NCBI GenBank assembly: GCA_030390025.1
Contig: CM059432.1
Span: 22,818,001-22,882,000, forward strand
Source: Squalus acanthias
Taxonomy: Eukaryota
Reading direction: 5' to 3'
DNA: 64,000 nucleotides
The notes under the pieces were generated by a model, which worked only from the letters and a program-made list of their open reading frames with translations, did not search any database and was not told where the DNA came from. Position 1 is the first letter of the stretch. Every line of letters begins with the position of its first letter. The position numbers were made by a program, and so were the translations under genes. Below, one piece after another: positions 2,401 to 41,779 of the stretch.

Positions 2401-5049
2401 ATGATTATATTGGTCTTTATTAATGTGAACGGACTGAGGGGTGAGAAGAAATTACAGCAGTTGTTGCAGTGTTTTAAAGGCACGGACTTGTTGGGCTGGA
2501 TTTTCATTGACCCGTGGAGGTTGGTTTGGAGGCATGTGGGGGGTTAAATTGCAAAAACTGGCGGGCAGGCACAAGCCCGCCTCCATCCCGCCTCCACGCA
2601 ATTTTCATTAAATTGGGTCTGCTGGTCCCGACTCCGTCCCGCCTCTAAGAGGTGGGATAGGCTGTTAAGGCCCTTAACAAGCACTAAATTGCCTCTATAA
2701 TGCCATTTTGAAAGGCCTTTGTAATTTTAACCCTTTTTCTACGTGAAGCACGCCTGTTCTGAACCACGAATGTGAAACCTGGTGGGAGCACAGCTGGCTG
2801 GCTAGCTGGCTGGCTGAGGAGGAGACATATCTGGATGGATGGATGAGGAGGAGACATATCTGGGAGTGGTGGTGCAAAAATATCTGGGAGCAGACTTAGG
2901 GCTGCTGCTATTCATTTTGCATCCAGGTCCTCTCACAGCAAAGGCCAGGCAGTCTTTGAAGACCTTCAATGCAGCAGCAATGATGACATCATCAGAGGCG
3001 ACTTTCAGACTGAAAACACTAATTGGTTCATGGGTTCCCACATGCTGGAACTCAATTGCCCAATTAGGTGAAAATCGCATCAATCTCCCACATCCAATTG
3101 CAGTCGGGTGGATAACACGAAAAGTGGATGACACGACCCCAACCCGCCCCAGTATCAAAATCCAGCCCATTGTGTCTGCAAGAAACCTTTTGGGATGAGA
3201 ATATCCTAGAAAGAGTTTGCAAGGTTTGGAAGGGAGAGGTGTTTGCAAGTTGCACAAACAAAAGCTGTAGAAGGGTGGCTGTTTTGGTGAGTCCGTCCAT
3301 AAAAGAGAACGTTGCCTTGGTGGACAAGGACACTGAGGGGAGATTTTTACGGCTAAAGGTAAAAATGGAGGAATTTAATTGCGATCTCTTTAATATCTAT
3401 GCATCGAACGACCATTGCAAGTGTCGCGAGTTTTTTGGTGGTTATTCACAGAAGTGGGAGAGGTGGAATACCCTTGTATAGTGGTGGATTTTAATGTATT
3501 TTTATCTCAGATGGACATTTCAGCCCAGATGACCTTTAAGGATGATAACTCCAGAGGGATGATTGTAAAAATGATGGCAAATTTAAATTTGAGGGACTTA
3601 TGGAGGGATCGGAACCCCATAAAAAGGAAGTTCTCCAGAAGAGGTTGGGTGGGTGATATTTTAAAACAGAGCCGAATAGATTTTGTGTTAATGTGGGAAG
3701 GGTTCAGTTCTGAGGTGATGGAGATTTATTATAAAAAGTATTTTTTAGTGACCACTTGGCTTTGGTTCTTAGAATTAGGAACAGCAGAGTTAAGATCGGT
3801 CCAGGGGTGTGGATTTTAAACAATCAATACCTGAAAGAAATTGCTTATAAAGAAGGGATTTTAAATATAATAAAGAATGCTTGGACGGAACCTTTATTCT
3901 TGAACGAAAGGAGGGTTTGGTGGGACAATTTCAAAAATGAGGTAAAAGTTCTTTTGGTACATTATGGGAGAGAGAGAGCGGCAGCTAAACGGCGTCAAGA
4001 AGAGAATATAAACAGAAGGTTTACGGATATCTGTAAAGCAGTTGACGGAGGGAATAAGGGAGCAGAGACTAAGTGGGTGGTTTTAAAGGAAGAGTGGGAA
4101 TTGTTGCAAGCTGAAAAATGCAAGGGTGCCATTCTCTGTGCAAAGGCTAAAGATGCATTGGAGGGAGAAAGATGCACTAGATATTTTCTAGAGAAAGAGA
4201 AGCTGCGACAGAGATTATCATTAAATGGAGAGTTGAAGTTTGGGGAGAAGATCATTAATGAAAGTTGGGAGATTTTGGAGACAGCTAGTAGCTTTTATCC
4301 AGACTTATATACAAAAGAAGACATTTCCAAATTGGCGATGGAGAAGGTTAATGCTTTTATTGAAGAGGGTTTAAAGGAGGATGAGAGAAGCATGTGTAAC
4401 AAAGAAGTAGGATTAGTGGAAATAAAAGTAGCAATAAGTGGAATGAAGGGCAGGGGGTGGGTAACGGGGGGGGGGGGGAGTACAATGGACTAAGTGCAGA
4501 ATTTTATAAAGGATTTTTAGTCCATTGCTCTTAGGGGTTTTTAAGGAGATTAAAATTGAGGGAAGCCTGGCCCCATCTATGAGGAGAGGTATCATAAGTT
4601 TAGCTTATAAAAATAAAGGGGATAGAAGGGATCTAAAGAATTGGAGGCCCATCACATTATTAAATGTGGATTATAAGATCTTGACAAGGGTTATGGCAAA
4701 TCGTATGAAGGAGGTGATGCCGCAGATATTTTTGCCCTCTCAGTCCTATGGAGTCATAGGCCGGACATCGCAGACTCTCTGGTATCAATCCAAGATGTGA
4801 TAGAGCTCATGGAAGAGAGTGGGAGGGAGGCTTATGTATTAAAGATAGATCAAGAGAAAGCCTTTGATAGGGTCTCTCATGAGTTTTTATTGATGGTTTT
4901 GGAAGCATTTGGTTTTGGGAAAAATTTAATTGAGTGGATAAGGATTTTTTATTCAAACATATTTACCTGTGTTAAATGTAATGGATTTTTATCCAAATAT
5001 TTTCAGATACAGAGGTCAGTGAGACAGGGTTGTCCCCTTTTCCCATTGT
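2401..5049 (+). pseudogene. Tx1 ORF2: APE endonuclease and N-terminal half of RT, disrupted
   Basis: Motifs INVNGLR, LCLQETF, NIYASN, DFN, SRIDFV, PGVWILN, KNWRPITLLNVDYKIL, DQEKAFDRVSHEFL and VRQGCPL. Split by the MITE at 2493-3168 and by frameshifts. Confidence 0.88.
2493..3168. mobile_element. PIF/Harbinger MITE family A, copy 1
   Basis: TIR GGGCTGGATTTT...AAAATCCAGCCC. Near-identical to 13911-14656 and 23107-23798. Flanks are gtt/att (imperfect 3-bp TSD). Confidence 0.88.
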
Positions 5050-7322
5050 TGAGAAGTCGCACAACACCAGGTTATAGTCCAACAGTTTTATTTGAAATCA
5101 CAAGCTTTCGGAGCGGCTGCTCCTTCGTCAGGCGAAGTAAAGGAATACAAATCGACAAAGCATATATAGATAGAGAACAATGCATGTGAAGCGTACAATG
5201 GCAGACGACTACATTTAATCCTCCTGACTGCCTTTTGTCACACCTCGGCAGATTAACAATCAGGTCAGCCAGGAAGGCACCACATCAAAGACATAGCAAG
5301 ATACAACTGAGACAATGAGGTGGGGTTACAGGGGGTCTAATGAGTCAAAAGCTGCAGTCAGTATGGAAAACGATAAACTTTAAAAAAATTACTTATTTTT
5401 ACTGGAAATCACATCTGAACAAGCCAACGATGACTCGAGTCTGGATGACTCTACGTCATGTATCGTGACATGAACCCAAGATCACGGTTGAGGCCGTCCT
5501 CATGGGTGCGGAACTTGGCTATCAGTTTCTGCTCGATGATTTTGCGTTGTCGTGTGTCTCTAAGGCCGCCTTGGAGAACGCTTACCCGCAGATCCGAGAC
5601 TGAATGTCCTTGACTGCTGAAGTGTTCCCCGACTGGGAGGTAACAATCCTGCCTGGCAATTGTTGCGCGGTGTCCGTTCATACGTTGTCTCAGTGTCTGC
5701 ATGGTCTCGCCGATGTACCATGCCGCGGTGCATTCTTTCCTGCAACGTATCAGGTAGACAACGTTGGCCGAGTCACATGAGTATGTACCATGTACCTGGT
5801 GGGTAGTGTCCTCACGTGTGATGATGGTATCTGTGTTGATGATCTGGCATGTCTTGCAGAGGTTGCCGTGGCAGGGTTGTGTGGTGTCGTGGTCACTGTT
5901 ATCCTGAAAGCTGGGTAATTTGCTGCGAACGATGGTACTTCTGAGGTTAGGTGGCTGTTTGAAGGCAAGTAGTGGAGGCGTGGGGATGGCCTTAGCGAGG
6001 TGTTCGTCGTCATCGATGACATGTTGAAGGCTGCGAAGAACATGGTGTAGTTTCTCTGCTCCGGGGAAGTACTGGACAACGTAGGGTACCCTGTTGGTTG
6101 TGTCCCGTGTTTGCCTTCTGAGGAGGTCTATGCGATTTTTCGCTGTGACCCGTCGGAACTGTCGATCGATGAGTCGAGCGTCATATCCCGTTCTTACGAG
6201 GGCGTTTTTCAGCGTCCGTAGGTGTCCATCGCGTTCCTCCTCGTCTGAGCAGATCCTGTGTATTCGCAGGGCTTAGCCATAGGGGATGGCTTCTTTAACG
6301 TGGTTAGGGTGGAAGCTGGAGAAGTGGAGCATCGTGAGGTTGTCCGTGGGCTTGCGGTAGAGTGAAGTGCTGAGGTGTCCGTCTTTGATGGAGATTCGTG
6401 TGTCCAGGAATGAAACCGATTCTGAGGAGTAGTCCATGGTGAGTTTGATGGTGGGATGGAACTTGTTGATGTTATCGTGTAGTCTTTTCAGTGATCCTTC
6501 GCCGTGGGTCCAAAGGAAGAAAATGTCGTCGATGTATCTGGTGCACAGCGTTGGCTGGAGGTCCTGTGCAGCGAAGAAGTCTTGCTCGAACTTGTGCATG
6601 AAGATGTTGGCGTATTGGGGTGCGAATTTGGTCCCCATGGCAGTTCCGTGTGTTTGGGTAAAAAACTGGTTGTCGAAGGTGAAGACTTTGTGGTCAAGGA
6701 TGAAGCGGATGAGTTGTAGGCTGGCGTCTGGAGATTGGCTGTTGTTGGTGTTGAGTACTGAGGCTGTCGCAGCGATGCCGTCATCGTGGGGGATACTGGT
6801 GTAGAGTGCCGATACGTCCATCGTGGCGAGGAGTGTTCCTGGTTCAACTGGTCCGTGGGTGCTGAGTTTCTGTAAGAAGTCTGTGGTGTCGCGGCAGAAG
6901 CTGAGGGTTCCCTGTACGATGGGTTTCAGGATGCCCTCGACGTATCCACAGACAACCTCACGATGCTCCACTTCTCCAGCTTCCACCCTAACCACGTTAA
7001 AGAAGCCATCCCCTATGGACAAGCCCTGCGAATACACAGGATCTGCTCAGACGAGGAGGAACGCGATGGACACCTACGGACGCTGAAAAACGCCCTCGTA
7101 AGAACGGGATATGACGCTCGACTCATTGATCGACAGTTCTGACGGGCCACAGCGAAAAATCGCATAGACCTCCTCAGAAGGCAAACATGGGACACAACCA
7201 ACAGGGTACCCTACGTCGTCCAGTACTTCCCCGGAGCGGAGAAACTACGCCATGTTCTTCGCAGCCTTCAACATGTCATCGATGACGACGAACACCTCGC
7301 TAAGGCCATCTCCACGCCTCCA
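5050..7322 (-). mobile_element. Penelope-like element (RT + GIY-YIG), 5'-truncated with an inverted segment at 6948-7322
   Basis: RT motifs TMDVSALYTSIPH, GTAMGTKFAPQYANIFM, RYIDDIF and SFLDT. GIY-YIG region NVVYLIRC..WYIGETMQTLRQRMNGHR, ending HEDGLNRDLGFMSRY. 6948-7322 is an inverted copy of ~5972-6346. Confidence 0.9.
5098..5135 (-). ncRNA. Minimal type-I hammerhead ribozyme motif in the Penelope 3' region
   Basis: Minus strand reads UCGC-CUGACGA-A-GGAGC-AGCC-GCUCC-GAAAGCUU-GUGA: conserved core, stem II, stem I and a palindromic AGCU in place of stem III. Confidence 0.7.
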
Positions 7323-7762
7323 CGGTCTTATGTGAGATTGGGTGAGTGGAGGTGGCAACTTGCCCAGTGTGTGGGACACGGGATGAGACTCTGTCCCATT
7401 AACTGGTGTTATGTCTGCAGTTAAAGGATTTTAAGTACTATGTTCGACAGTTGTGTGAGATTTTTTTGCTGGGTGGGGACCGAAGAGCGAGAATGGGAAT
7501 CCCGTGGGACACAATTTTGAGATGGGGATTACAGGGGAGTCTGCTTGAGTCTAGCGGAGCATCAATTAATTTAATGTTCAGTTTGGCTCGATTCGTGATT
7601 GTGCAAAGAAGGATTGCCCTTTTTTTTAAGGGGAGGAGAATAAACCTAAAAGAGTATTTTAAATATGAGCTAAAAGATCATTATAAGCCTCTGTGGATGT
7701 TTTATTCAGAAAGGAATTTAAAAATAGTGTTTTATGATCAATTATTAAAGTACAATAGATAG
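7323..7762 (+). pseudogene. Tx1 ORF2 C-terminal zinc-finger region
   Basis: Translates ATCPVCGTRDETLSH*LVLC (CX2C..H..C) followed by INLMFSLARFVIVQRR, typical of the Tx1/L1 ORF2 end. Confidence 0.7.
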
Positions 7763-9187: not shown

Positions 9188-9761
9188 CTAAGTGGGTGCG
9201 AGGAGTGATGTGATGGGGTAAGCTTGAGACGACAGAGTGAGGGGTTGCAGTTATGCGCACAGCAGGATGCAGCCACTGTACGCACCTTTCCTGACTGGCT
9301 TAGGTCATTAAACTGCGTTCTGCACTGAATCCAGGAGCGTAGCACCTCTGCAACCTCCAACCACAGCTTCTTAGTCTCAGCTGCAGGCTTCTTCCTCCCG
9401 TTGCTAGGGAAGAGTGTCTTTCTTCTACTTCTCACAGCCCCCAGCAGCACATCCATAGAGGCATCCGTGAAACGGGTCGCAACCTTTGCCCATCTGGACT
9501 CCATTCTGACAGCCAACTCCAACTCCTTCAACTTGCATGTTTGGATTTTTCCTTTAAGTACTGGAGTTGAGATCGTGTCATGTGGGCCTACATCACGCCC
9601 CGCTGCTGCTGATTGGACGGGAAACCCGCAAGTAAAATGATAAGGAGGTGGCTGAGTTAGAAAGCCACTGACAGACGCGCTGCACTTACTTCCGGGTTTC
9701 CCGTGCACTATCGGACCCCCACCACCCCGTCCCAGCGTGGCGCAAACTTAAAATTGGGGCC
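9188..9761 (-). mobile_element. Harbinger fragment with Myb/SANT exon 1 and terminus
   Basis: Translates MESRWAKVATRFTDASMDVLLGAVRSRRKTLFP..WLEVAEV..RSWIQCRTQFNDL, homologous to exon 1 at 20691-20927. Confidence 0.75.
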
Positions 9762-13910: not shown

Positions 13911-14656
13911 GGGCTGGATTTTCATTGACCCGTGGAGGCGGGTTTGGAGGCGTGTGGGGGGGTTAAAATTGCGAAAACTGGTGGGCGGGCACAAGCCCGC
14001 CTCCATGCAATTTTCATTAAATCATGTCTGCTGGTCCCGACTCCGTCCCGCCTCTAAGAGGCAGGATAGGCTGTTAAGGCCCTTAACAAGCACTAAATTG
14101 CCTCTATAATGCCATTTTGAAAGGCCTTTGTGATTTTAACCCTTTTTCTACGTGAAGCATGCCTGTTCTGAACCACGAATGTGAAACCTGGTGGGAGCAC
14201 AGCTGGCTGGCCGGCCGGCCGATCTGGGAGTGGTGATGGATGGATGGAATGAATAGCTGGGAGTGGTGGTGGATGGATGGAATGAATATCTGGGAGTGGT
14301 GGTGGATGGGAGACATATCTGGGAGTGGTGGTGGATGGGAGACATATCTGGGAGTGGTGGTGCAAAAATATCTGGGAGCAGACTTAGGGCTGCTGCTGCT
14401 CATTTTGCATCCAGGTCCTCTCACAGCAAAGGCCAGGCAGTCTTTGCAGACCTTCAATGCAGCAGCAATGATGACATCATCAGAGGCGACTTTCAGACTG
14501 AAAACACTAATTGGGTCATGGGTTCCCACATGCTGGAACTCAATTGCCCAATTAGGTGAAAATCGCATCAATCTCCCACATCCAATTGCAGTCAGGTGGA
14601 TAACACGAAAAGTGGATGACACGACCCCAACCCGCCCCAGTATCAAAATCCAGCCC
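13911..14656. mobile_element. PIF/Harbinger MITE family A, copy 2
   Basis: 12-bp TIR, perfect TGT TSD, expanded internal GGGAGTGGTGGT minisatellite. Confidence 0.92.
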
Positions 14657-16071: not shown

Positions 16072-16370
16072 GGGCTCGATTTTGTCATGGGGTGGGCTGG
16101 GGTCGTGTCATCTGCTTTTCGTGTTAGCCACCCGACTCCAATTGGATGTGGGAGAATTATTTGATTTTCCCCTAATTGGGCAATTGAGTTCCAGCATGTG
16201 GGAACCCATGACCCAATTAGTTTTTTCAGTCTGAAAGTTGCCTCTGATGATGTCATCATTGCTGCTGCATTTAAGGTCTGCAAAGATTGGGAACCTTTTG
16301 GCCTTTGCTGTGAGAGGGACCTGGAGGCAAAATGAGCAGCAGGAGACCTAAGTCTGCTCCCAGATTTTTT

Positions 16371-16407
<37 letters not shown>

Positions 16408-16825
16408 CCTCCAGGCTCCAAAGTTCCACAACAATGGTTATGACTGCTAAAAGTTCCCCCAGAATGATGATTCATCAAATCTCCTTCTTAATGGTGGACC
16501 TGCAGCTGATAGTCAGCAATTCAAGTGTGCTACCGCTAGGTTTCACCGTCGTGTTTCAGAGGAGGCGTGCATCACGTCGGAAAAGTGTTAAAATCAGAAA
16601 GGCCTCTCAAAATGGGATTATAGAGGCAATTAAGTGGTTCTTAAGGGCCTTAAGGGCCTATCCCGCCTCTTGGAGGCGGGACGGAGACAGGATCAGAAAC
16701 AACGCATTTGGGAAAATTGCTCGGAGGTGGGATGGAGGCAGGGTCAGGCCTGCCCGCCATTTTTGCAATTTTAACACCCCACACGCCTCCATTCCCGCCT
16801 CCTTGGGCCTGGCAAAATCGCGCCC
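16072..16825. mobile_element. PIF/Harbinger MITE family A, diverged copy in opposite orientation
   Basis: TIR GGGCTCGATTTTG / CAAAATCGCGCCC, ATA TSD, internal similarity to the other copies in reverse, (ACT)n microsatellite near 16380-16406. Confidence 0.85.
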
Positions 16826-17487
16826 ATAGTGTACGTAAGATTGCTTCACCAAATTGTTTACTAGCCTATTGTGCTGCCTGAGTGCCCTCTCTTGGATAAA
16901 AATGGTGTGGAGATGCCGGTGTTGGACTGGGGTGGACAAATGTGAGAAGTCGCACAACACCAGGTTATAGTCCAAGGGGGAAAAATTCAGTTGGTTGCGC
17001 CTCCCGTTAGCGCCTTAAGAGGGCGCTAATGGGGCGTTAAGCCGCTAACGCCCGGGCGCAGCGCTGTTTGCGCCGCTCGAGAACTTAACTTGAGATTGTG
17101 CGGCGGCGCTAAAACTTACCGCTGCGACCACCTGCGCGCGCAGATTGTGACGTCATTCCATGGTGCAACGCCCTTGGGGCGCCCCGGAGCGGAAATTGAG
17201 TGGCGCCCCCTGCCTTACCGCCTGGCGCTTCCAACGACCGGAAGACTGGAACGTTATCAATCGGTGTGGGGCTGGGGGGGGCGCTATTTAAAGGGGGCCT
17301 CTTCCTGTCTTTTTCTGTGGTCGACATTTATGCACCACTCGTTCTGAGAGAGAGAGAGAGATTCGGAGAGAGAGAGAGAGAGACTTCTACATTGACTCAA
17401 CGCTTTGTGAGGTAGTTTGGCCTAGTTCATCCTAACTTTGCTGCTACTTTAGTTGCTGTACCTCATTACTTTTCTGGCAAAGAGAAT

Positions 17488-18648
17488 ATGGGGGCTGCAA
17501 TGATTGGGGGCGTCGTCCTGCTCCAGCTCAATCGGAGGATAGTGAGACGCAGACAGAGAGTGGCAATGATGGCCAGACGGAGGAGGGCCATCAGGCGCAT
17601 GTACAGGAGAGCTTACCCTCCCAGGGTATATCGTGAACAGCTCTCCTACATCCATATGTCCGAGGAGCTGTGTTTGCGAAGGCTGCGATTCAGCAAGGAG
17701 GTGGTCACTGAGCTCTGCCACCTGCTGCAGCCAGATCTGCAGCCTCAGCTGAGGTCCAGGACGTCTCTGTCGGTGGCAGTGAAGGTCACAGTGGCTTTGA
17801 ACTTCTACGCCACTGGCTCATTCCAAGCTGCTGTTGGGGACCTCGCCAATATCTCCCAGTTTGCGGTGCATCGCTGCATCCGGCAGGTCACCAATGCCCT
17901 CTTCAGAAGGAGACGAGACTTCATCTCCTTCCCTATGACCCCAGACAAGCAGCATGACCGTGCTATGGGCTTTGCGAGGGTAGCGGGCTTCCCCATGGTG
18001 CAGGGCGCCATTGACTGCACGCATGTGGCTTTGCGTGCTCCGCGAGAGAATGCAGAGGAGTTCCGGAACAGAAAGGGGTTCCATTCCTTGAATGTGCAGT
18101 TGGTCTGTGACCACAGACAGGTGATTCTCGCTGTCAATGCCCACTATCCGGGCAGCTGCCACGATGCTTTCATCCTGCGCCAGAGTACTGTGGCAGAAAT
18201 TTTCGAGGCACCGCATCAGCCAGTTGGTTGGCTTCTGGGGGACAAGGGGTACGCATTGAGCACCTGGCTGATGACACCGCTCCGTGCGCCAAACACCCCT
18301 GCTGAGCTGCGGTACCAGGAAAGCCATCAAGCAACCAGGAACATTATTGAGCGCACAATCGGCGTGCTGAAACAACGATTCCGCTGTCTGGACCATTCCG
18401 GAGGAGCCCTGCAGTACTCGCCTGAGCAAGTTTCGAACTTCATAGTCGTGTGCTGCATGTTGCACAACATGGCAATCCTCAGGACGCAGCCAATGCCACC
18501 AGGCCTTGCAGCACCACAAGAGGAGGAGGAGGAAGAGGAGGAACAGGACGAGGACGATGATCAGCAGCAGCACCAAGGCAGGAGGGCGGCCCACAATGGT
18601 CAAACTGCAAGGGCCGTCCGTCAACGACTAATAGCAAGCCGCTTCTAG
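17488..18648 (+). CDS. Harbinger DDE transposase (HARBI1-like nuclease), 386 aa
   Basis: Uninterrupted ORF with GFPMVQGAIDCTHV, NRKGFHSLNVQLVCD, YPGSCHDAFIL, GWLLGDKGY, IERTIGVLKQRFRCL and CCMLHN. Confidence 0.95.
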   Translation: MGAAMIGGVVLLQLNRRIVRRRQRVAMMARRRRAIRRMYRRAYPPRVYREQLSYIHMSEELCLRRLRFSKEVVTELCHLLQPDLQPQLRSRTSLSVAVKVTVALNFYATGSFQAAVGDLANISQFAVHRCIRQVTNALFRRRRDFISFPMTPDKQHDRAMGFARVAGFPMVQGAIDCTHVALRAPRENAEEFRNRKGFHSLNVQLVCDHRQVILAVNAHYPGSCHDAFILRQSTVAEIFEAPHQPVGWLLGDKGYALSTWLMTPLRAPNTPAELRYQESHQATRNIIERTIGVLKQRFRCLDHSGGALQYSPEQVSNFIVVCCMLHNMAILRTQPMPPGLAAPQEEEEEEEEQDEDDDQQQHQGRRAAHNGQTARAVRQRLIASRF

Positions 18649-18942
18649 GGCCCCTGCCATTGCTACAAACACGAATCAACCCAGCACGCAACCCCTAAGC
18701 CGGCCAAGGCACCAATAATTCCAACCACCAGCCATGTATATTTTGAATACAGAAACTTATTTATTGTACAAACTCTGTGTGTGTCAATTCCTCATGACAA
18801 ACTCATAGAAATAAACACAAAAAAACAGTCAATAACATAACTGGTTCTCACAACCTGGAGATAATGTCCAAAACACTAAACAAAAGTTGGGCCATGAACC
18901 TCGGCCTTCAATAAAAAAATGACCAGCATTTTGGCACACCTC

Positions 18943-20927
18943 CTACTTTTTGCCCTTCGAGGGTGATCTCCTTCCCTTGCGCACTTCCCCCCTTCTAACC
19001 CTACTGCTCCTCCGTAATGGGACCTCAGTGGCTGCAGCAAGGCTGGTGGAAGGCTGCTGCTCGTCAGACCCTGACACTGCAGATGCCCCTGAAGGACGGC
19101 CTCGAGCACTTCTGGGCCTGGAGGGCCCGGCTGCAGACTGCACCAACTCTGCATGGGCGGCAGCAGTCTGTCCTACAGGCGGTGGCAAGTGCAGTGGAGA
19201 AGTGACAGTGTTGGCAGCAGGAATGCTGTCATCGTGAGAGAGGACAGCAACTCCCTGCTCGCCCGACACACTGGCACTCCCACGGGGCAGCACTTCAGCA
19301 TCCGGAGCAATTTGCCGGAGAACAGATTGCTGGCCTGCTGCGGCGCGGTGACAGCCCCGGGGACATGTGCACGAACCATCGAGGATGGCAGCAGTCAGTG
19401 CTCGCGTGGCCTCAATCTGAGTCTGCATGAGAGCAGTCTCAGATGGGTTCCTGGCAGCCAGTGACTGAATTGCAGCACTAAGCTTTAGTGTGGCATCCGC
19501 CTGTGCTACAGCGAAGTGCTCCACACTCCTTGCCAGTGCCTCAATGCATTCGGGCACCCTTCCCACTGCACCCATGAGCTCAGTGTGCATGCCCACCGCC
19601 TGGCTGTTCATTTCTGCAATCAGCCGCTCCTCCTCTGCGTCCATTGCAGTAGGAGTGTCTGGCATACTCTCCCTCTGGGGAGAAGGCTCCCGTTCTTCCC
19701 TCCCCCCCCCATGGCGTTGCTGCAGCCCGCTGGGTCCTGGAGCTTCACCATCATCAGCCCCTTCCCCCCTGCTCCCCTCCGGGGAAGGCGTGTTCCCAGT
19801 GTGGCCATGGGCTTCCTCGGGAGAGGGTGGCACTGATGCTCCGGCTTCCTCTTCCTCCTCAGCTGCAGCATCACTCCCAGTGGCAGCTTCAGGGACCATC
19901 TCCTCAGCTGGTGAATCACCATCTGAAAGCAGGGAGGTACAAGAGTGGCTTTAGCGTGAGGACAGGGTGGCAGTAAGGGAGGAATAAGTGCAGCGAGTTA
20001 GCAAGTTGGATTGAAAGTGTCAAAGGCTGGTATTGTGAGGGACAAGTGGAAGGACAGAGGACAAAAAGGTGATGACCTTACCATTGCTGTCCACAACGGG
20101 GTCGGCATCCCCAGTGGCGACGGGACCGATCACCCGGCTTGCCACAATCCTGTGGACGCGCTCCTCCAGATCGCTGAGGGGTTGCAGCTGAAGCCGCCCT
20201 CCACCCGTCCGTTGCTGCTGTCTCCGATTATGAGCCAGCTTAGCCTGCAAGAAAAAGGACAGCATCTGAGTAAATATACAGCCATGGTCTTGCCTGATGT
20301 GCCTCCCATAGGTGAATAGCCCTTACAATATGCAGCCATGGTCTTGCCTGATGTGCCTCCCATAGGTGAATAGCCCTTACAATATGCAGCCATGGTCTTG
20401 CCTGATGTGCCTCCCATAGGTGAATAGCCCTTACAATATGCAGCCATGGTCTTGCCTGATGTGCCTCCCATAGGTGAATAGCCCTTACAATATGCAGCCA
20501 TGGTCTTGCCTGATGTGCCTCCCATAGGTGAATAGCCCTTACTGTATGCAAAGTGTGGAATGTGTGTGTGTGTTTGATGAAAGGGCCATAGGTGTTGCAT
20601 GAGTGTTGTGCATTGGGGTTTTAAGACCCTCTGGCCATATAGTGAGGTTGAGATGGAGGGATGGAGAGGTATTGAGAAAAAGCCACTCACCCTGACGACC
20701 CGAGTGAGGTTGTTGAATTTTTTGCGGCACTGAACATGGGTCCTGGGCACCATGCTCCTGGAGGAGACGCTCTGAGCCACCTCCCTCCACACTCTTCTGA
20801 ACTCGCGTGGCAAAGGCCTCCTGCCACTCTCCGGGAACAGCATGCATCGTCTGCGCTCCACTGCGCCAACCAGAGCATCCAAGGCCCGCTCGGTGAAGCG
20901 ATGAGCGCGTTCTCTCACCCTCTCCAT
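18943..20927 (-). CDS. Harbinger Myb/SANT-like DNA-binding protein, 3 exons (20927-20691, 20244-20082, 19922-18943), 459 aa
   Basis: Exon 1 reads MERVRERAHRFTERALDAL..WREVAQ..RTHVQCRKKFNNL. GT-AG junctions are AGG|GTGAGT, TTGCAG|GCT, AATG|GTAAGG and TTTCAG|AT. Phases are consistent (237+163+980=1380 nt) with no internal stops. C-terminus is basic. Confidence 0.85.
20279..20542. repeat. 54-bp perfect tandem repeat (~4.9 copies) in intron 1 of the Myb gene
   Basis: Unit cagccatggtcttgcctgatgtgcctcccataggtgaatagcccttacaatatg starts at 20279, 20333, 20387, 20441 and 20495. Confidence 0.95.
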
Positions 20928-21302
20928 GCTTGGCAGCAAAATGGATTACAGGTCTCTCCAGGCTGAGATTCAAGGCTGCAATGAGCAGGGTGTGGCTGGG
21001 GAGCAAGTGGCCCCCCCCGCTTTAAGAAGTGTCCGGCGCCAGTGTGTCTGTGTTCCCTCGCTAACTGGCAGCAGCTGCGCTGCGCTCGTGCGCTGAGGTA
21101 GCGCCTCACTCCTAGGCCTTTGCGCCTTAAGAGAGGTGTGCAGCGCCTAATTTAGCGCTCCACTCACCTCCCGGGGCGGTAAAAGTGAAGTTTCCTGTCA
21201 GTGCCGATAATTAGCGCCAGGCGCTAATATTTGCGCTCGGACGATATTTGCGCCCCAAATGGGGCGCGACCTAATTTCTACCCCCAACAGTTTTATTTGA
21301 AA

Positions 21303-21379
21303 TCACAAGCTTTCGGAGCGACTGCTCCTTCGTCAGGTGAAGTCACTTGACGAAGGAGCAGCGCTCCGAAAGCTTGTGA
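21303..21379. ncRNA. Back-to-back hammerhead ribozyme motifs (minus 21303-21340, plus 21343-21379)
   Basis: Minus: UCAC-CUGACGA-A-GGAGC-AGUC-GCUCC-GAAAGCUU-GUGA. The plus copy has UUGACGA (core C>U). Confidence 0.7.
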
Positions 21380-21989
21380 TTTCAAATAAAGCTGTTGGAC
21401 TATAACCTGGTGTTGTGCGACTTCTCACATTGGATAAAAATGACACCAATTTCATTTAATTGCATTTGAGGTAAAAGCTGTTTTTGAAACACTTAAATGT
21501 TGTGCTTCTGCACACTCTTCCTTCTCCCTCTCACCTCACAAACAAAATGGATACAGCGATGCTGTGTGTTATTTGCCCTCTTTGTTCCTCAATTCCTCAA
21601 GATTTTTGAATCTTCTCTCTCCATTTTATCAATACAACTTTGGACTTTGCAATTGAACTTTCCTCTTTTCTTCCTCTTAAGTTTCAAATACACTTTCATA
21701 CATGCTCTTCCTTCTTCCTGACTTCCACCTCATTCTTGATTTTTTTTGCCTGAATGAATTTTGGTGATCTTATTCATAACCTTGACACTTCAATTAGATC
21801 ACTCAGTCTTCTCTTTGTAAAGAAAGCCTTCCTTTCTATCTGCATTCCATTAGCTTTTAAAACCCACTCTGGAAATACCTAACCACTAATCCTTGATTTA
21901 CCTTGTCTAGTTTAATCTTATACTCTTTTCAGCCTTGGAGACATCCTGCACAATAGGCACCGGGCTTTCACTTAGACTCCTCACTCTCC

Positions 21990-22959: not shown

Positions 22960-24220
22960 TCTGTCTGCATCCATCACTACCCTAAGTTCCATGTTGACAC
23001 ATTTCTACCTGGATTTTTGAGAGGAGACCTGTCTTCGCCACCTCTGCTTCTGAAGACACACCACCACAGAGTTGTGCTATCTGCTACGAAATGATTTGCA
23101 CACAAGGGGCTGGATTTTCATTGACCCGTGGAGGCGGGTTTGGAGGCGTGTGGGGGGTTACAATTGTGAAAACTGGCGGGCAGGCACAAGCCCGCCTCCA
23201 TCCCGCCTCCACGCAATTTTCATTAAATCATGTCTGCTGGTCCCGACTCCGTCCCGCCTCTAAGAGGCGGGATAGGCTGTTAAGGCCCTTAACAAGCACT
23301 AAATTGCCTCTATAATGCCATTTTGAAAGGCCTTTGTAATTTTAACCCTTTTTCTACGTGAAGCACGCCTGTTCTGAACCACGAATGTGAAACCTGGCGG
23401 GAGCACATTTGGATAGCTGACTATCAGTGGCTGGCTGGCTGAGCTGGGAGTGGTGGTGAATGGGAGACATATCTGGGAGTGGTGGTGCAAGGGAGACATA
23501 ATCTGGGAGTGGTGGTGCAAAAATATCTGGGAGCAGACTTAGGGCTGCTGCTGCTCATTTTGCATCCAGGTCCTCTCACAGCGAAGGCCAGGCAGTCTTT
23601 GCAGACCTTCAATGCAGCAGCAATGAGGTGACTTTCAGACTGAAAACACTAATTGGGTCATGGGTTCCCACATGCTGGAACTCAATTACTCAATTAGGCG
23701 AAAATCGCATCAATCTCCCACATCCAATTGCAGTCGGGTGGATAACACGCAAAGTGGATGACACGACCCCAACCCGCCCCAGTATCAAAATCCAGCCCAA
23801 GATCTCTATCAGGCACAGCTCTTCTTGTAGAAGCTTTCATGCTATTGGATCTTTCCAAGACAACCAGGGACATATGCTACATCAGGCAGTCTATAGTGCA
23901 GAGCTGTATCAATAAAGTGATTGATGATGTGCTTGTAAGGGGCTACAGCTTGACCACTTCACCTGCAGAAAGGAGGCTGGACAGGACGCAGAGTTTTCTG
24001 GTAAACTTTCCTGAAGTGTAAGGTTCCACAGATGGTGCAATTGAGGCCAACAGGGTTCCTCATATGAATCATATGGCCTACATACAAAGAAATATTTGTA
24101 TTTTGGCCCTATCATTCAGATCTTCAAGTGGTCTTTGGCCACTGAAATAACATTATGTATGATCTTGGCCATTAGCCAGGAAGCAGCCATGATTCCATCA
24201 GTAAACAGCAGTCAATGGTG
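22960..24220 (+). pseudogene. Decayed Harbinger transposase interrupted by MITE A copy 3
   Basis: ETCLRHLCF*RHTTTELCYLLRNDLH|RSLSGTAL.. aligns by eye with ELCLRRLRFSKEVVTELCHLLQPDLQ. A PGSSHD-like motif (ccaggaagcagccatgat) lies near 24176. Confidence 0.6.
23107..23798. mobile_element. PIF/Harbinger MITE family A, copy 3
   Basis: 12-bp TIR, perfect AAG TSD. Confidence 0.92.
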
Positions 24221-24499: not shown

Positions 24500-26055
24500 A
24501 GGGGTACAGTAGTGTAGTGGTTATGTTATTGGCCTAGTAATTCAGAGACCTGGACTAATAGAGTCATAGAGTTATACAACACAGAAAGAGGCCCTTCGGC
24601 CCAACGTGTCCGTGCCGGCCATCAACCTGTCTATTCTAATCCCATTTTCCAGTATTTGGTCCGTAGCCTTGTATGCTATGGTGTTTCAAGTGCTCATCTA
24701 AATGCTTCTTGAATGTTGTGAGGGTTCCTACCTCTACCACCCTTTCAGGCAGTGAGTTCTAGATTCCAACCACCCTCTGGGTGATAAAGTTTTTCCTCAA
24801 ATCCCCTCTAAACCTCCTGCCCCTTACCTTGAAACTATGCCCCCTGGTTATTGACCCCTCTACTAAGGGGAAAAGTTCCTTTCTATCTACCCTATCTATG
24901 CCCCTCATAATTGTGTACACCTCAATCAGGTCCCCCCTCAGCCTTCTCTGCTCTAAGGAAAACAACCCCAGCTTGTCCAGTCTCTCTTCATAGCTAAAGC
25001 ACTCCAGCCCAGGTAACATCCTGGTGAATCGCCTCTGCACCCTCTCCAATGCAATCACATCCTTCCTATAGTGCAGAACTGCACACAGTATTCCAGCTGT
25101 GGCCTAACTAGCGCTTTGTACAGCTCCATCATAATTCCCTGCTCTTATATTCTATGCCTCAGCTAATGAAGGCAAGTATCCCATATGCCTTTTTAACCAC
25201 CTTATCTACCCGTCTTGCTGCCTTCAGGGATCTATGTACATGTACCCCAAGGTCACGCTGATCCTCTGTCCTTCCTCAGGTCCTACCATTCATTGTGTAT
25301 TCTCTTGCCTTGTTAGTCCTCCCAAAATGCATCACCTCACACTTTTCAGGGTTAAATTCCATTTGCCACTGTTCTGCCCATCTAACCAACCCGTCTATAT
25401 CGTCCTGTAGCCTGAGGCTTCCCTCCTCGCTATTTACCACCCCACCAATTTTCGTGTCATCTGCGAACTTACTGATCATACCTCTTACATTCATATCTAA
25501 CTCATTAATGTACACTACAAACAGCAAAGGACCCAGCACCGATCCTCGCGGTACACCACTGGACACAGGCTTCCAGTCACAAAAACAACCTTCGACCATC
25601 ACCCTCTGCCTCCTGCCACGAAGCCAATTTTGGATCCAATGTGTCAAATTGGCCTGGATCCCATGAGCTCTTACCTTCTTGACCAGACTCCCTTGCGGGA
25701 CTTTGTCAAAAGCCTTACTGAAGTCCATGTAGACTACATCAACTGCACTACCCTCATCCACAAACCTAGTCACCCCCTCGAAAAATTAAATCAAATTGGT
25801 CAGACATGACCTCCCCCTGACAAAGCCATGCTGACTATCCTTGATTAATCTTGCCTCTCCAGAGAATGTGAGTTTAAACCCCACCATGATAGCTTCAGAA
25901 TTTGAATTTAATTTTTTAAAAATATGGAAATAAAAAACTGGAATCAGTAAAAGTGACCATGAAGCTGTTGGATTATCGTAAAAACCCAACTGATTCACTA
26001 ATGTCCTTTAGTTGCTGTTGTTCTTATCCAGTCTGGCTTGCAAATCACTCCAGTC
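24500..26055 (+). mobile_element. tRNA-derived SINE split by a CR1 insertion
   Basis: Head tagtgtagtggttatg..cctggactaat (to ~24559) resumes at ~25859 with ccagagaatgtgagtttaaaccccacc. A related minus-strand copy lies at ~48230-48680. Confidence 0.6.
24560..25858 (-). mobile_element. CR1 LINE 3' part (RT), 5'-truncated
   Basis: ORFs with YMDFSKAFDKVP, GVPRGSVLGPLLF, SKFADDTK and ALERVQRRFTRMLPG, plus a CR1 3'UTR. Confidence 0.92.
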
Positions 26056-29374: not shown

Positions 29375-31323
29375 GGGGGAAAAATTCAGTATCTTAGCGC
29401 CTTCCGTTAGCACCAGCAGATGGCGGTAACAGGGCGCTGATGCAGTAGCGCCAGGGCGAGGCAAATCCAGTGCCACACGGCAAATCCTGCCCCCCCCCCA
29501 TTGTGCCGCCAGTACGAGGTACCGCCGGGGACTTCAACGCCAGGCAGATCGTGACATCAGTGAGTGTGCAATGCCTACCGGCTGCCCGATCTGCAAAATC
29601 TTTGTGCAGTGCTTGTCAGTGTTTGCAGCACCTCAATGCTGTATAACACTGACAGCGCAACTGTCAAAATGAATGCGGCCATGGTCCATAAGAACATAAC
29701 AAAATAAGAAATAGAAGCAGGCGTAGGCCATTCAGCCCTTCGAGCCTGCCCCACCATTCAATGAGATCATGGCTGATCTTCTGCCTCAACTCCATTCACT
29801 GGCCCTATCGCCATATCCCTTGATGCCTTTACTAGTCAGAAATCTATCGACTTCTGTTTTGAATATACCCAATGACTGAGCCTCCACAGCCCTCTGGGGT
29901 AGAGAATTCCAAAGATTCACCACCCTCTGTGTGAAGAAATATCTTCTCATCTCAGTGCTGAATGGCCTACCCTTTATCCTGAGGCTGTGGCCCCTGGTTC
30001 TAGACTCCCCAACCAATGGAAACATTCTCCCAGCATCCACCCTATCAAGCCCTGTAATAATTTTGTGTGCTTCAATGAGATCCCCTCTCATTCTTCTGAA
30101 TTCAAGAGAATACAGGCCTAGTTTACTCAATCTCTTCTCATACGGCAGTCCCACCATCCCAGGAATCAATCTCGTGAACCTTCGTTACACTCCCTCTATG
30201 GTAAGTATATCCTTCCTTAGGTAAGGAGACCAAAACTGTACACAGTACTCCAGGAGTGGTCTCACCAAGGCCCTATATAATTGGAGTAAGACTTCTTTAC
30301 TCCTGTACTCAAATCCTCTTGTAATGAAGGCCAGCATACCATTTACCTTCCTAATGGCTTGCTGCACCTGCACATTCACTTTCAGTGACTCATGTATAAG
30401 GACACCCAGTTCCCTTTGAGCATCTGCATTCCCCAATCTTTCACCATTTAAGAAATACTCTGCCTTTCTGTTTTTTTCTACCAAAGTGGATAACTTCACA
30501 TTTATCCACATTATATTCCATCTGCCATGTTCTCGCCCACTCACTGAGCCTGTCGAGTACCCCTTGAAGCCTCTTCACATCTTCTTCACAACTGACACTG
30601 CCACCTAGCTTTGTATCATCAGCAAATTTGGAAATGTTACATTTAGTCCCCTCATCCAAATCATTGATATAGATTGTGAATAGCTGGGGCCCAAGCACCG
30701 ATCCTTGCGGTACCCCACTAGTCACAGCCTGCCATCCTGAAAAAGACTCGTTTATCCCTACCCTTTGTTTTCTGTCGGTTAACCAATTCTCAATCCATGC
30801 TAGTATATTACCCCCAATTCCATGTGCCCTAATTTTGTTCACCAACCTCTTGTGTGGGACCTTATCGAAGACCTTCTGAAAATCCAGATACACCACATCT
30901 ACTGTTTCCCCTTTGTCTACTCCACTAGTTACATCCTCAAAGAACTCCAATAGGTTTGTCAAACAGGATTTCCCTTTCATAAATCCATGTTGACTCTGCC
31001 CAATCTTACTATTAGTTTCTAAGTGCCCAGTTATTGCATCCTTTATAATAGATTCCAGCATTTTCCCAACTACTGATGTGAGGCTAGCAGGTCTGTAGTT
31101 CCCCGTTTTCTCTCTCCCTTTAAGTAAACCATCTGATGACACGTCATCAAATGATGTCATCAGACCCGCTTCCTTTTAATTGGCCAGGAACCCCGCAGGA
31201 CGGGCTTAACAAGCCCTATTAACGGAAAATCCTTTTTACAGAGTGGCTGCAGTTGGGAACGGGACCGGAACCTGCCAACCACCTCTCCTGCCACGATCCC
31301 GCCTCCACTGGCGAAATCGCAGC
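29375..31323. mobile_element. Harbinger MITE split by a CR1 insertion
   Basis: Left end GGGGGAAAAATTCAGT resembles 16976. Segments 29600-29686 and 31116-31230 match 41489-41685. Confidence 0.65.
29687..31115 (-). mobile_element. CR1 LINE 3' part (RT), frameshifted
   Basis: NYRPASLTSVVGKMLES, QHGFMKGKSCLTNLLEFF, DFQKVFDKVPH, ISKFADDTK; ataagaac tail. Confidence 0.93.
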
Positions 31324-35938: not shown

Positions 35939-36783
35939 GGGGGAAAAATTCAGTTGGTTGCGCCTCCCGTTAGCGCCTTAAGAGGGCGCTAATGGGGCGC
36001 AAAGCAACTAGCGCCCGGGCGCGGCGATGTTTGCGCCGCTTGCGAAATTAACAAGACATTTTGCGGCGGCGCTAAACACTACCGCCACGATCTCCTGCGC
36101 TGGTAGATCGTGACGTCATATTGAGTGGCGCCCCCTGCCTTACTGCCTGCCGCTAGCAACGACAGGTTGAGGGGAACGTTTTGCAGTCAGGAAGGGACTG
36201 GGGGAGCGCTATTTAAAGGCGACCGCTTCCTGCCTTTTATTGTTGGTCACATTTTTGAACCACGCTTTCTGAGAGAGAGAGAGAGAGAGACTTCTGGAGA
36301 GATTCAACGCTGTGTGAAGGAGTTTTGGGTACTGAGCAGCACTTTGCAGGTTCATTTTGATTTGCCCTTCCTTGTATCGATTTAGAAGAGACTCTGGGGG
36401 CTGCACTCTGAGCTCTTTCCCTGGTACTCTCCATTGTTCTTTCCAGCAGATTTGATGTGCAGGTCTCTCCAGGCCGAGATTCAAGGCTGCAATGAGCAGG
36501 ATGTGGATGGAAAGCAAGATCAACCCTCCCCTTTAAGAACTGGCCCGCGCCATTGTGTGTGTGTTCCATTGCTGACTGACATCACATGAGCTTCGCCAGC
36601 ACTCTGAGGTAGCGCCTCGCTCCTCGGCCTTTGCGCCTTAAGCGCCTGATTTAGCACTCCAATCACCTCCAGGGGTGATAAAAGTCAAGTTTGCAGTCGG
36701 TGGCGATAATTAGCGCCAGGCGCTAATCTTTGCGCCCGGCCGATAATTGCGCCCCAAATGGGGCGATACTGAATTTCTCCCCC
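35939..36783. mobile_element. Non-autonomous deletion derivative (845 bp) related to the intact Harbinger
   Basis: TIR GGGGGAAAAATTCAGT / ACTGAATTTCTCCCCC and TCA TSD. Left ~380 bp and right ~330 bp are colinear with 16976-17410 and 20930-21284. Confidence 0.93.
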
Positions 36784-38026: not shown

Positions 38027-38572
38027 GATATTTTATTTTTTTCCAGGCCCTCACAAGTGTGGAATTTTTTTAAATCTTCCTCTGTTTCCTTTTCTCCTAC
38101 AATCCATGATTTTTTAAAAGCCAAATTTGGCAACACCTAATCACTAGTTTTTCTCATCTTCTCTCCTCTTTTGAATTTTGATGCTGTCCTGCACTACAAA
38201 CTTGACCTTTCACTTGGTCATCTCAATCATTCTAAAAAAAACTCCATACAATACCATTGAGCCATCTAGGCAGCGATAAGCTCAAAATAAATTTGAGGTA
38301 ATACATTTTGGTAGGAAGAATAGGGAGGTCACTTATCACTTGGAGGGTGCGAGTCTAGGTGGGGTAGAGGAACAAAGGGATCTCGGAGTACAAATACACA
38401 AATCACTAAAAGTTGCGCCACAGGTTTAGCAAGACCATAAAGAAAAGCAAACCAAGCACTAGGGTTTATTTCTAGAGGGATAGAATTGAAAAGTAGGGAA
38501 GTTATGCTAAACCTGTATTGAAATGAGAAGTCGCACAACACCAGGTTATAGTCCAACAGATTTATTTAAAAT

Positions 38573-38608
38573 TACAAGCTTTCGGAGCTATCGCCCCTTC
38601 TTCAGGTA
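38573..38608 (-). ncRNA. Minimal hammerhead ribozyme motif
   Basis: UAC-CUGAAGA-A-GGGGC-GAUA-GCUCC-GAAAGCUU-GUA. Confidence 0.7.
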
Positions 38609-39249
38609 CAGTTACAATGAGTGAATCTACAAAAGTTCACAGAATATAAACACAGAAAATGCAGAGATACAATCTTTCCTTACATCAAAGACACACCAAG
38701 AGCACAGCCAAGACAATGAGATGTGTCCCAGGGGGTCCAACGTGTCAAATCCTGCTGTCTGTAGCCGATCTCTCTCCATATCCCTTCCTCTCTCTCCGTC
38801 TTTTTTGGGGTTTGTTTTTTGGGTTTGTTTTTTTGTGTTTGTTTTTTAAAAACTGGAAAGACAGACAACGATGTCAAGTCACGTTCTGTAGCGTGACATG
38901 AACCCGATATCCCTATTGAGGCCGTCCTCATAAGGGATATCAATAGGGATATCGGGTTCATGTCACGCTACAGAACGTGACTTGACATCGTTGTCTGTCT
39001 TTCCGGTTTTAAAAAACAAACACAAAAAAACAAACACAAAAAACAAACCCCAAAAAAGACGGAGAGAGAGGAAGGGATATGGAGAGAGATCTGCTACAGA
39101 CAGCAGGATTTGACACGTTGGACCCCCTGGGATACATCTCATTGTCTTGGCTGTGCTCTTGGTGTGTCTTTGATGTAAGGAAAGATTGTATCTCTGCATT
39201 TTCTGTGTTTATATTCTGTGAACTTTTGTAGATTCACTCATTGTAACTG

Positions 39250-39285
39250 TACCTGAAGAAGGGGCGATAGCTCCGAAAGCTTGTA
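39250..39285 (+). ncRNA. Minimal hammerhead ribozyme motif
   Basis: tac-ctgaaga-a-ggggc-gata-gctcc-gaaagctt-gta. Confidence 0.7.
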
Positions 39286-40120
39286 ATTTTAAATAAATCT
39301 GTTGGACTATAACCTGGTGTTGTGCGACTTTCTCATTTTTGTCCACCCCAGTCCAACGCCAGGCATCTCCGCATCAAAACCTGTATTGAACCTTGGTTAG
39401 ACCACACTTAGAGTACTGCGTGCAGTTCTGGTTGCCATATTATAAAAAGGATATAAAGGCACTGGAGAGGGTGCAGAGAAGATTTACAAGGATGATACCA
39501 GAAATGCGAGGGTATACATATCAGGAAAGGATGAACAGGCTGGGTCTCTTTTCTCTTGAAAAAAGAAGGTTGAGGGGTGACCTAATAGAGGTCTTTAAAA
39601 TTATGATAGGTTTTGACAGAGTGGATACAGAGAGAATGTTACCACTTGTGGGGAAGAGCATGACTAGAGGCCATCAATATAAGATAGTCACCAAGAAATC
39701 CAACAGGAAATTCAGAAGAAACTTCTTCACCCAAAGAGTAGTGAGAATGTGAAACTCACTACCACAGGGAGTGGTTGAAGCGAATAGTATCGATGCATTT
39801 AAGGGGAGGCTGGACAAGCATATGAGGGAGAGGGGAATAGAGGGTTATGCTGATAGATTTAGATGAGGAAAGACGGGAGGAGGCTCGAGTGGAGCATAAA
39901 CGCCAGCATGGACTGGTGGGCCGAATGGCCTGTTTCTGTGCCTTATAGCCTATGTAATCCTATGTAATCATATCAATATTTATGTTTAATATAAGGATTT
40001 ATGATTCTGCATTCCCAGCAGGAAGCTGCATTCAAAACAGTGAGAGAAATGGCACTACACTGTTGTAGCCCTATCTCTAGTCCACATTCCATCTGAGCAT
40101 GGCTCCCTGTTAGAATTTAA

Positions 40121-41779
40121 GGCCGAAGTTTTGTGGGGGGTCAGCAGGCGCGATCGGTGGCGGGTCAGGTGGGAAAGTGTTTCTTTTTCACAGCAGGTCG
40201 GGACCCCGCTGTGAACCCACCTGCCACGCGCCTTTCCCAATGTCAGGTCTGTCAGCGCTGAGCAGATCTGACACGCAGTGGCGGGGGGATCAATTCAGAT
40301 AATTAGTGGTTTGTTTCGAGCCACTTAAGAATGATTTTCAGCTCACCTTTTGTATTTGATAGCTTGCCCATGGGGTCCACGCTGGTCATGGACCATGTTT
40401 GTCAAGCTGAGGCTGGAGTTCAGTGGCCATTGAATCAGCTGTTGAGTTGACAGCTTCAAATATACTGTAAATTTCCCTCAGCCACAAATCTTCCTCATTG
40501 CATTTCCACAATACATTCGCCAAACTGCAAGTCTTTACACAAGTCTCCATCCAGTCTGACCTCATTACCTCTCCCACCATTGACAGATCGCTTCTGTCAT
40601 CTCTACTTCACCTGCCATCTATTCCATCAGCATGGGTGCCCTTTATACTCTCTCACCTTGGTCCTCAGAATCCCACCATGATCAGCCCCAACACCAGCAA
40701 CACCAGGTACACCAGCAGCACCAACAACAACACCAACCTTCTCCGCAATCAACTGATGCTGCACAGGACACAGGGCATCAGCACCCAACCACATTGCTGC
40801 CTGGGACGCCAGGGATGGCCTCACAACGGCCAGATTTACTTCATTTGATGATGTACACCCTGGCTGCCACATGATGTGCCAGTTGGTACCACCCCACACC
40901 AACACCATAAAGCATCCCTATAATGCCCAAGCCATTTGCTTCACATTCTTGACCATTGCAGGGGGTACCGTTATGTCTCACCATTCACTGCAACTCACTA
41001 AGTCACTTCCAAAGGTGCATACAAATCTGTCCAAGAACAGAAAGTGTTGAAAATAAAGGTTTCAATGATTGACAGCACATTAACAGAAACTTTACATGAA
41101 CAGTGCCTACCCTTGTGTGTTGTTAGATGGTATGGTTGGACTAGGATGAGGGTGAGTGTGAGGGGTGGCTAGTGAGATGGGGATGTGATAATATAGATAG
41201 AGAGGGATGGGTGGAAGTCCAAGATAAGTTAATGTGAGTAAGGATGTGCAAGAGTAGGATAGGGAAGTAGGGAAGGCAGCGTGATGGAATATGATGAGAG
41301 GCACAGCAGGATGAGGTTCAATGTGGCTTTGCACGAACGTTTTGTGTTCTACTGAGATCATTGAAACATTTGCGGCACTGCACCCAAGTCCTCCTGACCA
41401 CATCCCTGCTTGTGCCCTCCTGTGCAATGTGCACCCAGGCTGTGTTGATCTCCTAGAGAGGTCTCTTCCACCTGGTGCAGCCCTGTGCCTTTGTGCAGTG
41501 CTTGTCAGTGTTTGCAGCACCTTAATGCTGTAGAACACTGACAGCACAAATATCAAAATAAATTTTGACATAGTCCCTTTAAGTAAACCGTCTGATGACA
41601 CGTCATCAAATGACGTCACCAGACCCGCTTCCTCTAATTGGCCGGGAAACGCGCTGGGCGGGCTTACAAGCCCAATCAACGGGGTGATTTCACAGAGCGG
41701 GATGGAGCCAGCAGCGGGGTCAGGACCCGCCACCAACGTCGCCCGCCACGGACCCGCTGAGGTCAGCAAAGTCGCGGCC
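40121..41779. mobile_element. Non-autonomous Harbinger derivative (family B) with a Myb/SANT remnant
   Basis: Ends GGCCGAAGTTTTG / CAAAGTCGCGGCC. Minus strand ~41333-41440 translates AWVHIAQEGTSRDVVRRTWVQCRKCFNDLSR. The TSD is not clean. Confidence 0.7.

Follow-up and report, generated by a model that had tools for sequence, protein, structure and literature searches.

Is a transposon that looks whole in a shark genome still on the move, or is it the well-kept remnant of an earlier burst? This question is raised by a Harbinger DNA transposon of 4309 bp at positions 16976–21284 of a 64,000-nucleotide stretch of the Squalus acanthias genome (GenBank assembly GCA_030390025.1, contig CM059432.1, positions 22,818,001–22,882,000). 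We refer to this whole stretch as the window, and all positions are given within it. An earlier note, made from the sequence, had described a complete two-gene element that is recent and potentially active. Our analysis confirmed the anatomical part of this description: a DDE transposase open reading frame (ORF), a spliced Myb/SANT gene, terminal inverted repeats (TIRs) and a target site duplication (TSD) were all found, making this a structurally complete two-gene Harbinger transposon. As to its history, we consider it likely, with a probability of about 0.62, that the element is a remnant of a past burst, which would move by cut-and-paste if both proteins still work. The element is real and complete, and probably old in years.

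The element is flanked by the trinucleotide CAA on both sides (16973–16975 and 21285–21287), and this duplication is confirmed by three other copies of the host repeat in the window, all of them empty (at ~5050, 38524 and 39243), since these carry a single CAA at the insertion site. The insertion split a Penelope-type palindrome of 187 bp after base 40, leaving a remnant at 16936–16975 and the remaining palindrome at 21285–21434. The TIRs, which extend from 16976 to 16991 on the forward strand (GGGGGAAAAATTCAGT) and over 21269–21284 on the reverse strand (GGGGTAGAAATTAGGT, reverse complement, ending at 21284), are present as claimed, but they are short and imperfect, with 12 of 16 positions identical between left and right. 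The first 61 nt of the left end are the same in a miniature inverted-repeat transposable element (MITE) at 35939. The ends are indeed CpG-rich, with an observed/expected ratio of 1.15 in the left subterminal region (16976–17225) and 0.74 in the right (20976–21225), against 0.45 for the whole window. A TATA-like box 5' of the transposase gene (TATTTAAA, 17285–17292, forward strand) is retained in the MITE and may act as a promoter element. The two genes have convergent 3' ends within 18760–18915, where poly(A)-like hexamers (at 18810 and 18910 on the forward strand, and at 18760–18765 on the reverse strand) could be used.

The transposase is encoded on the forward strand by an ORF of 386 aa (17488–18648), which matches Pfam DDE_Tnp_4 (E = 1.1e-38) and keeps the catalytic triad D176, D252 and E288, in agreement with the intact frame described earlier. 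At 31 of the 32 highly conserved columns (≥90%) the window copy agrees with its homologs, the lone exception being Q277. Among the 120 matches listed (362 found), 112 are from cartilaginous fishes, including all of the first 63, and the best of those listed is 65% identical, a pattern that makes a cartilaginous fish the likely host. A sequence search of the PDB with the transposase gave no match below E = 0.049, and Foldseek with the predicted structure gave none at E ≤ 0.001, with only weak DDE transposase/integrase rows. Many shark and ray models named 'HARBI1', P0004, P0005, P0009 and P0012 among them, carry K at the position of the catalytic E (18 of 116 aligned); these models are perhaps domesticated or dead copies.

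The partner gene lies on the reverse strand and comprises three exons with GT-AG introns, encoding 459 aa with no internal stops. Exon 1 (20691–20927) matches Myb_DNA-bind_5 (PF13873, E = 6.2e-9) and is followed by a predicted phase 0 intron of 446 bp (20245–20690, GTGAGT..TTGCAG), exon 2 (20082–20244, AKLAHN..TGGG), a predicted phase 1 intron of 159 bp (19923–20081, GTAAGG..TTTCAG) and exon 3 (18943–19922), which has no Pfam match and aligns to shark homologs. The junctions proposed earlier, 20691/20244 and 20082/19922, find their support in homology and not in RNA. Junction 1 is crossed by a gapless alignment in 41 of 61 Myb homologs, and a sawshark model (P0123, Pristiophorus japonicus) is colinear with residues 11–456 of the spliced protein at 38% identity. 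In a decayed relative at 44029–44823, intron 1 is found at the same codon, with a GC donor and the acceptor TTCTTGCAG, together with a donor matching that of intron 2. Longer homologs that include exon 1 were found by a full HMMER search, and none by a word-indexed search. Six alternative junction offsets were rejected: four break the frame, and two leave the protein unchanged at the cost of non-canonical ends.

Sequence runs were available as contigs only, of uncertain kind; four were compared in detail (X1; X10, from organism D; X17, from organism A; X19, from organism B). No recorded RNA run among those listed contains the element; four are RNA by guess, X17 and X19 among them. Among the 15 of 88 joints listed for X17 and X19, none falls at 20691/20244 or 20082/19922. 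One contig of X17 crosses 20521–20978 unspliced, and one of X19 ends at 19923, where the spliced and unspliced paths diverge, a single-study observation below the threshold of a weak hint. Intron 1 contains a 54-bp minisatellite (20273–20550) of about five near-identical units, four of the five identical, and the unspliced ORF translation there is a repeated peptide. In X1, the joints 19422>19914, 19422>20169 and 18968>20169 (depth 104–496) indicate internally deleted derivatives that lack much of exon 3, and in X19 the depth dips over 19260–19750. Among the Myb-like homologs, the P0127 cluster, conserved in four ray species, is perhaps a domesticated gene.

The flanks of the element bear on how its target was chosen. 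For Harbinger3_DR of zebrafish, the target is given as AAACACCWGGTCTTT (PMC3016246). From 8 Harbinger-type ends of the window, 14 half-sites could be scored, and their agreement with AAASAC is 57 of 84; the random mean is 1.77 of 6 per half-site, none of 200,000 draws reached 57, and shifted registers scored 17–46. All six two-ended elements in the window score 7–9 of 12, a level attained at 3.5% of positions. The central triplets vary (CAA, TCA, TGT, AAG, GTT/ATT, ATA, TTT and TAT) and fit neither TWA, CWG nor, strictly, TNA. The Harbinger ends in the window display an extended 15-bp target preference of the vertebrate type. Six X17 contigs extend beyond the left end into different flanking DNA; their consensus, of low agreement, ends in AAACAC-CAT.

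In X1, one contig joins the right end of the element to the mirrored site of the hairpin (21284 to 21395), in the orientation opposite to that of the window copy and at a depth of 3250, which is 116–180 times the single-copy depth; minor variants of this junction carry TTA at the site (depth 82) or are shifted by one base (depth 99). Random insertion would give at most about 3 at the hairpin site, as extrapolated from five hairpin arms per 64 kb. The hairpin site scores 8 of 12, a value attained at 1 in 117 positions, which can explain an excess of at least 40-fold. Because this score suffices for the excess, we think it somewhat likely that the opposite-orientation junction reflects an insertion hot spot. 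Less probable as the source of the abundant junction, though a serious rival to repeated targeting, is a single insertion whose copies multiplied afterwards together with the Penelope repeat: the depth of 3250 comes from one contig whose shorter side has 23 letters, and an amplified composite would look alike. However, the window copy is oriented the other way and two further junction variants exist, which points to several events at least.

The age of the insertion was approached through the copies in the runs. Of 24 listed runs, 20 contain the element, 17 of these with at least half of its words; the 20 runs come from 11 studies and carry seven organism labels. In X1 alone, 39,726 contigs match the stretch, with 175 variable places. 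The family is high-copy; summed depth gives loose bounds of ~500 to 26,000 copies, contig depth not being a copy number. The ratio of hairpin to element-interior depth, ~67-fold in X17 and X19 and 2–4 in X1 and X10, was left unused, contig depth being a poor measure. The unique right flank is covered in X1 (depth 18–28) and has no cover in X10, X17 and X19. Since hairpins without an insertion also align to the right arm, an empty allele is indistinguishable from the sister hairpins.

Compared with the longest listed contigs, taken as the dominant form of three runs, the window copy differs by 1.6% (X10), 2.0% (X17) and 3.3% (X19), sums that omit divergent low-depth contigs (one of those listed in X10, two in X17 and two of eight in X19). 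The majority of these differences define a subfamily, frequent in X1, scarce in organisms B and D and seemingly enriched in organism A. At 6 of 37 listed element sites, another letter accounts for at least 97% of the depth in all four runs. We take the difference at 18185 as a single-copy change, because the leftover X1 depth at this site (15) resembles that of the unique flank. The mutation rate of a shark has been put at ~7e-10 per site per generation (95% confidence interval 1.4–14e-10; PMC10587355). On so slow a clock, a divergence of 1% means millions of generations; one to six private-looking changes in 4309 bp correspond to 3e5 to 2e6 generations, and the probability of any change within 10,000 generations is 3%. 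In simulations of substitutions only, without indels, the chance for each ORF to stay free of stops was 0.94–0.95 at 0.2% neutral substitution and 0.44–0.50 at 2%. Open frames are thus expected at the measured divergence, and are therefore no proof of activity. With this divergence, the private-looking changes, the seven organism labels and frames that are expected to be open, the view of the copy as recent and potentially active was not borne out. Nor does the preservation of the hairpin date the insertion as recent, as had been argued: a Penelope-type repeat is indeed split, but the hairpin departs from its own family at 21347, where 99% of X1 depth has another letter, and contains one additional base near 21321, and the shark clock is slow. 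Horizontal transfer need not be invoked for the seven organism labels, as the nearest proteins all come from cartilaginous fish and so slow a clock is sufficient.

A remnant of a past burst would have the following history: the subfamily of this copy would have kept its function once it had split from the majority form, the copy would have entered the Penelope hairpin because this repeat is a good target, and it may have drifted since for ~10^5–10^6 generations. Several points weigh against so old a date. Five of the six listed subfamily-type differences in the transposase are silent (23% expected, P = 0.003; five of eight overall, P = 0.02). Changes that are mostly silent suggest a lineage that was still working after the split and selected for function, and this excess would speak against an old date. 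That the letters of the subfamily are frequent in X1 and near-absent in B and D suits a younger amplification within one lineage. The number of private changes is approximate, being taken from 40 of 206 variant rows, with one site of certain-looking private status, and a private letter inherited from a lost parent copy could make the insertion younger. The clock is that of one shark species, and X1, possibly the very sample that was assembled, is then not independent. The excess of silent changes and the distribution of the subfamily letters, together with both open frames, the intact triad, the near-complete agreement at conserved columns, the CpG-rich ends and the near-identical minisatellite units, are what a lineage still mobile in its host and a recent insertion, as the earlier note had it, would have in their favor. 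We nevertheless regard this as improbable, given at least one single-copy change (18185) that 10,000 generations would seldom produce, frames that chance would keep open and a family common to seven organism labels. In the grey reef shark, moreover, the class described as most active of late is that of the long interspersed nuclear elements (LINEs) rather than DNA transposons (PMC12498223). The bolder proposal that the native genes still transpose, reading the outer bases of a 15-bp target with a free centre and homing repeatedly into the Penelope ribozyme site, is unlikely too, if marginally less so.

Equally doubtful as continued mobility is the idea that the copy is outwardly whole but functionally crippled, its subfamily being moved in trans by better copies. 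The absence of lesions noted earlier holds for stops and frameshifts, but two conserved residues are altered. At transposase residue 277, 105 of the 115 aligned homologs carry N and none carries Q, and Q277 sits in the long helix that bears the catalytic E288 (predicted structure, mean predicted local distance difference test score 90.7); codon 277 is, however, absent among the 40 of 206 variant rows listed, from which Q277 is probably family-wide. At Myb residue 73, the window copy has N in place of the D shown by the family majority and by 59 of 64 aligned stretches; this is a subfamily trait, and N also occurs in the decayed relative. Two private-type changes of the transposase are non-silent (residues 233 and 319), but both residues are frequent in homologs too (S in 77 of 114 and I in 31 of 101, respectively). 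The TIR match, 12 of 16 here, is 15 of 16 in the related MITE. A domesticated pair of host genes like HARBI1/NAIF1 is largely refuted, and we give it very little credence, although homologs are named 'putative nuclease HARBI1' in databases and both Harbinger genes have been domesticated in jawed vertebrates (PMC9392472). Such a pair would be single-copy and without TIR or TSD; this element has both, was inserted into a repeat, has a MITE derivative and exists in very many copies.

If the remnant of a past burst worked like Harbinger3_DR, the Myb/SANT protein would bind the ends and carry the DDE transposase into the nucleus, and the transposase would excise the element and insert it at a semi-palindromic target of ~15 bp, duplicating the middle 3 bp. 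For Harbinger3_DR and Ping/Pong, end binding and import of the transposase by the Myb protein, as well as cut-and-paste movement with a 3-bp duplication, have been described (PMC2836001, PMC9179366, PMC9392472). Judged from its sequence, the anatomy of the element fits this mechanism in every tested part, and the element is a reasonable candidate for a transposition assay.

The host repeat fits Penelope-like elements by its hammerhead core. A minimal hammerhead (CUGANGA-stem-GAAA), a mark of Penelope-like terminal repeats (PMC6155905), is found with motif and stem in five arms of the repeat; in the remaining palindrome, cores lie at 21347–21372 (forward strand, with T for C as first base) and 21336–21311 (reverse strand). 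A search of Rfam with 21250–21460 gave no hammerhead and only hairpin-like matches below gathering scores. The empty arms with minimal cores are at 5050–5138, 38524–38615 and 39243–39342, the latter two forming an inverted pair ~630 bp apart. A further inverted pair (52308–52390 and 53561–53643, 87%), with another hammerhead-like core at 52405 on the reverse strand, is probably a second Penelope-type family.

The window holds several relatives of the element. The MITE at 35939–36783 (845 bp, TSD TCA) has both ends in common with it and is 76–79% identical overall; it was likely moved in trans by the element's family. The decayed two-gene relative, at ~44029–46377 in the opposite orientation, contains stops and frameshifts and shows 64% aa identity over 162 transposase residues. 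Four Harbinger-type MITEs of other families (TIR GGGC..GATTTT) lie at 2493–3168, 13911–14656, 23107–23798 and 16072–16825, with TSDs GTT/ATT, TGT, AAG and ATA, respectively, and AAASAC-like flanks; two of them hold tandem units of 29–33 bp. Lone Harbinger-like left ends without a nearby matching right end are found at 12939, with a perfect AAACAC half-site, and at 29375, and further decayed Myb-like or transposase fragments at 9250–9495, 41327–41470 and 23006–23101. Other features are an inverted repeat of 378 bp (5972–6349 and 6946–7323, 97% identical, ~600 bp apart) and many LINE fragments (24731–25836, 29802–31115, 49913–51225 and others), which from their ORF2-like translations we take to be CR1/L2-like.

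With a DDE_Tnp_4 domain and its triad, a Myb/SANT gene, TIRs and a 3-bp TSD, the element belongs to PIF/Harbinger in the broad sense (PHIS). The TWA duplication of the strict PIF/Harbinger group (Han 2015) is found neither here (CAA) nor in any of the six two-ended elements of the window, none of which has the CWG of NuwaI either; one X1 junction does show TTA. The NuwaII target C-TNA-G does not fit the element (C-CAA-C) and partly fits the MITE (C-TCA-T). The element otherwise resembles NuwaI and NuwaII of the PHIS superfamily, which measure ~4.3–4.7 kb, encode DDE_Tnp_4 and Myb_DNA-bind ORFs, live in vertebrate hosts and have TIRs beginning with GG or GGG, the GGG start of NuwaI being common to the element (PMC4482050). 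A further likeness is the C just outside the TSD, present in 9 of 14 half-sites of the window. Vertebrate families with two intact ORFs have already been catalogued (11 NuwaI and 22 NuwaII), and no cartilaginous-fish family was found in the accessible part of that catalogue (PMC4482050).

By anatomy and target, the element is like Harbinger3_DR in its DDE and Myb-like genes, 3-bp TSD and AAASAC half-site. It differs in its free centre, where Harbinger3_DR has CWG, and in being a natural copy with open frames, whereas Harbinger3_DR is a reconstructed consensus, active in human cells (Sinzelle 2008, as cited in PMC3016246 and PMC2836001). Closest in sequence are shark and ray models named 'putative nuclease HARBI1' and Myb-like (for Pristiophorus japonicus, P0001 and P0123; 65% for the transposase, 38% and colinear for Myb), which are automatic gene models, many without the triad, and are undescribed as elements. 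The host genes HARBI1, NAIF1 and MSANTD belong to the same two protein families (PMC9392472), in line with the link drawn earlier, but are single and syntenic, while the element has TIRs, a TSD and many copies. Rice Ping/Pong-mPing (PMC2836001) and a Turmoil2-associated element of Caenorhabditis inopinata (bioRxiv 10.64898/2026.05.26.728016) are naturally active two-protein systems with MITE derivatives; both differ in their TWA targets and in that their mobility was observed, the shark element being known from sequence. Harbinger expression has been reported in fish and newt. A literature search, with most subscription journals and Repbase outside its scope, found neither a naturally mobile vertebrate Harbinger nor this shark family. 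A 2024 survey of ~130 DNA transposons in human cells reportedly may include Harbingers.

Harbinger/Tourist types are the commonest DNA transposons in the grey reef shark (PMC12498223) and are listed for the whale shark (PMC8455134), and the element can be seen as an ordinary, well-kept member of the commonest DNA-transposon group in at least one shark genome. A 2022 survey reported no Harbinger in the elephant shark and called for a look at further cartilaginous fishes (PMC9179366), a small gap which the element fills. The AAASAC half-site with its relaxed centre suggests that subgroup names based on the TSD fail to sort shark Harbingers, and the conservation of AAASAC suggests that the reading of the target is old and located in the flanks. 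If the native proteins work, the element would provide a natural vertebrate two-component transposase for studies of mechanism and structure, for which there is no close solved structure, and could serve as a delivery tool whose target preference is longer.

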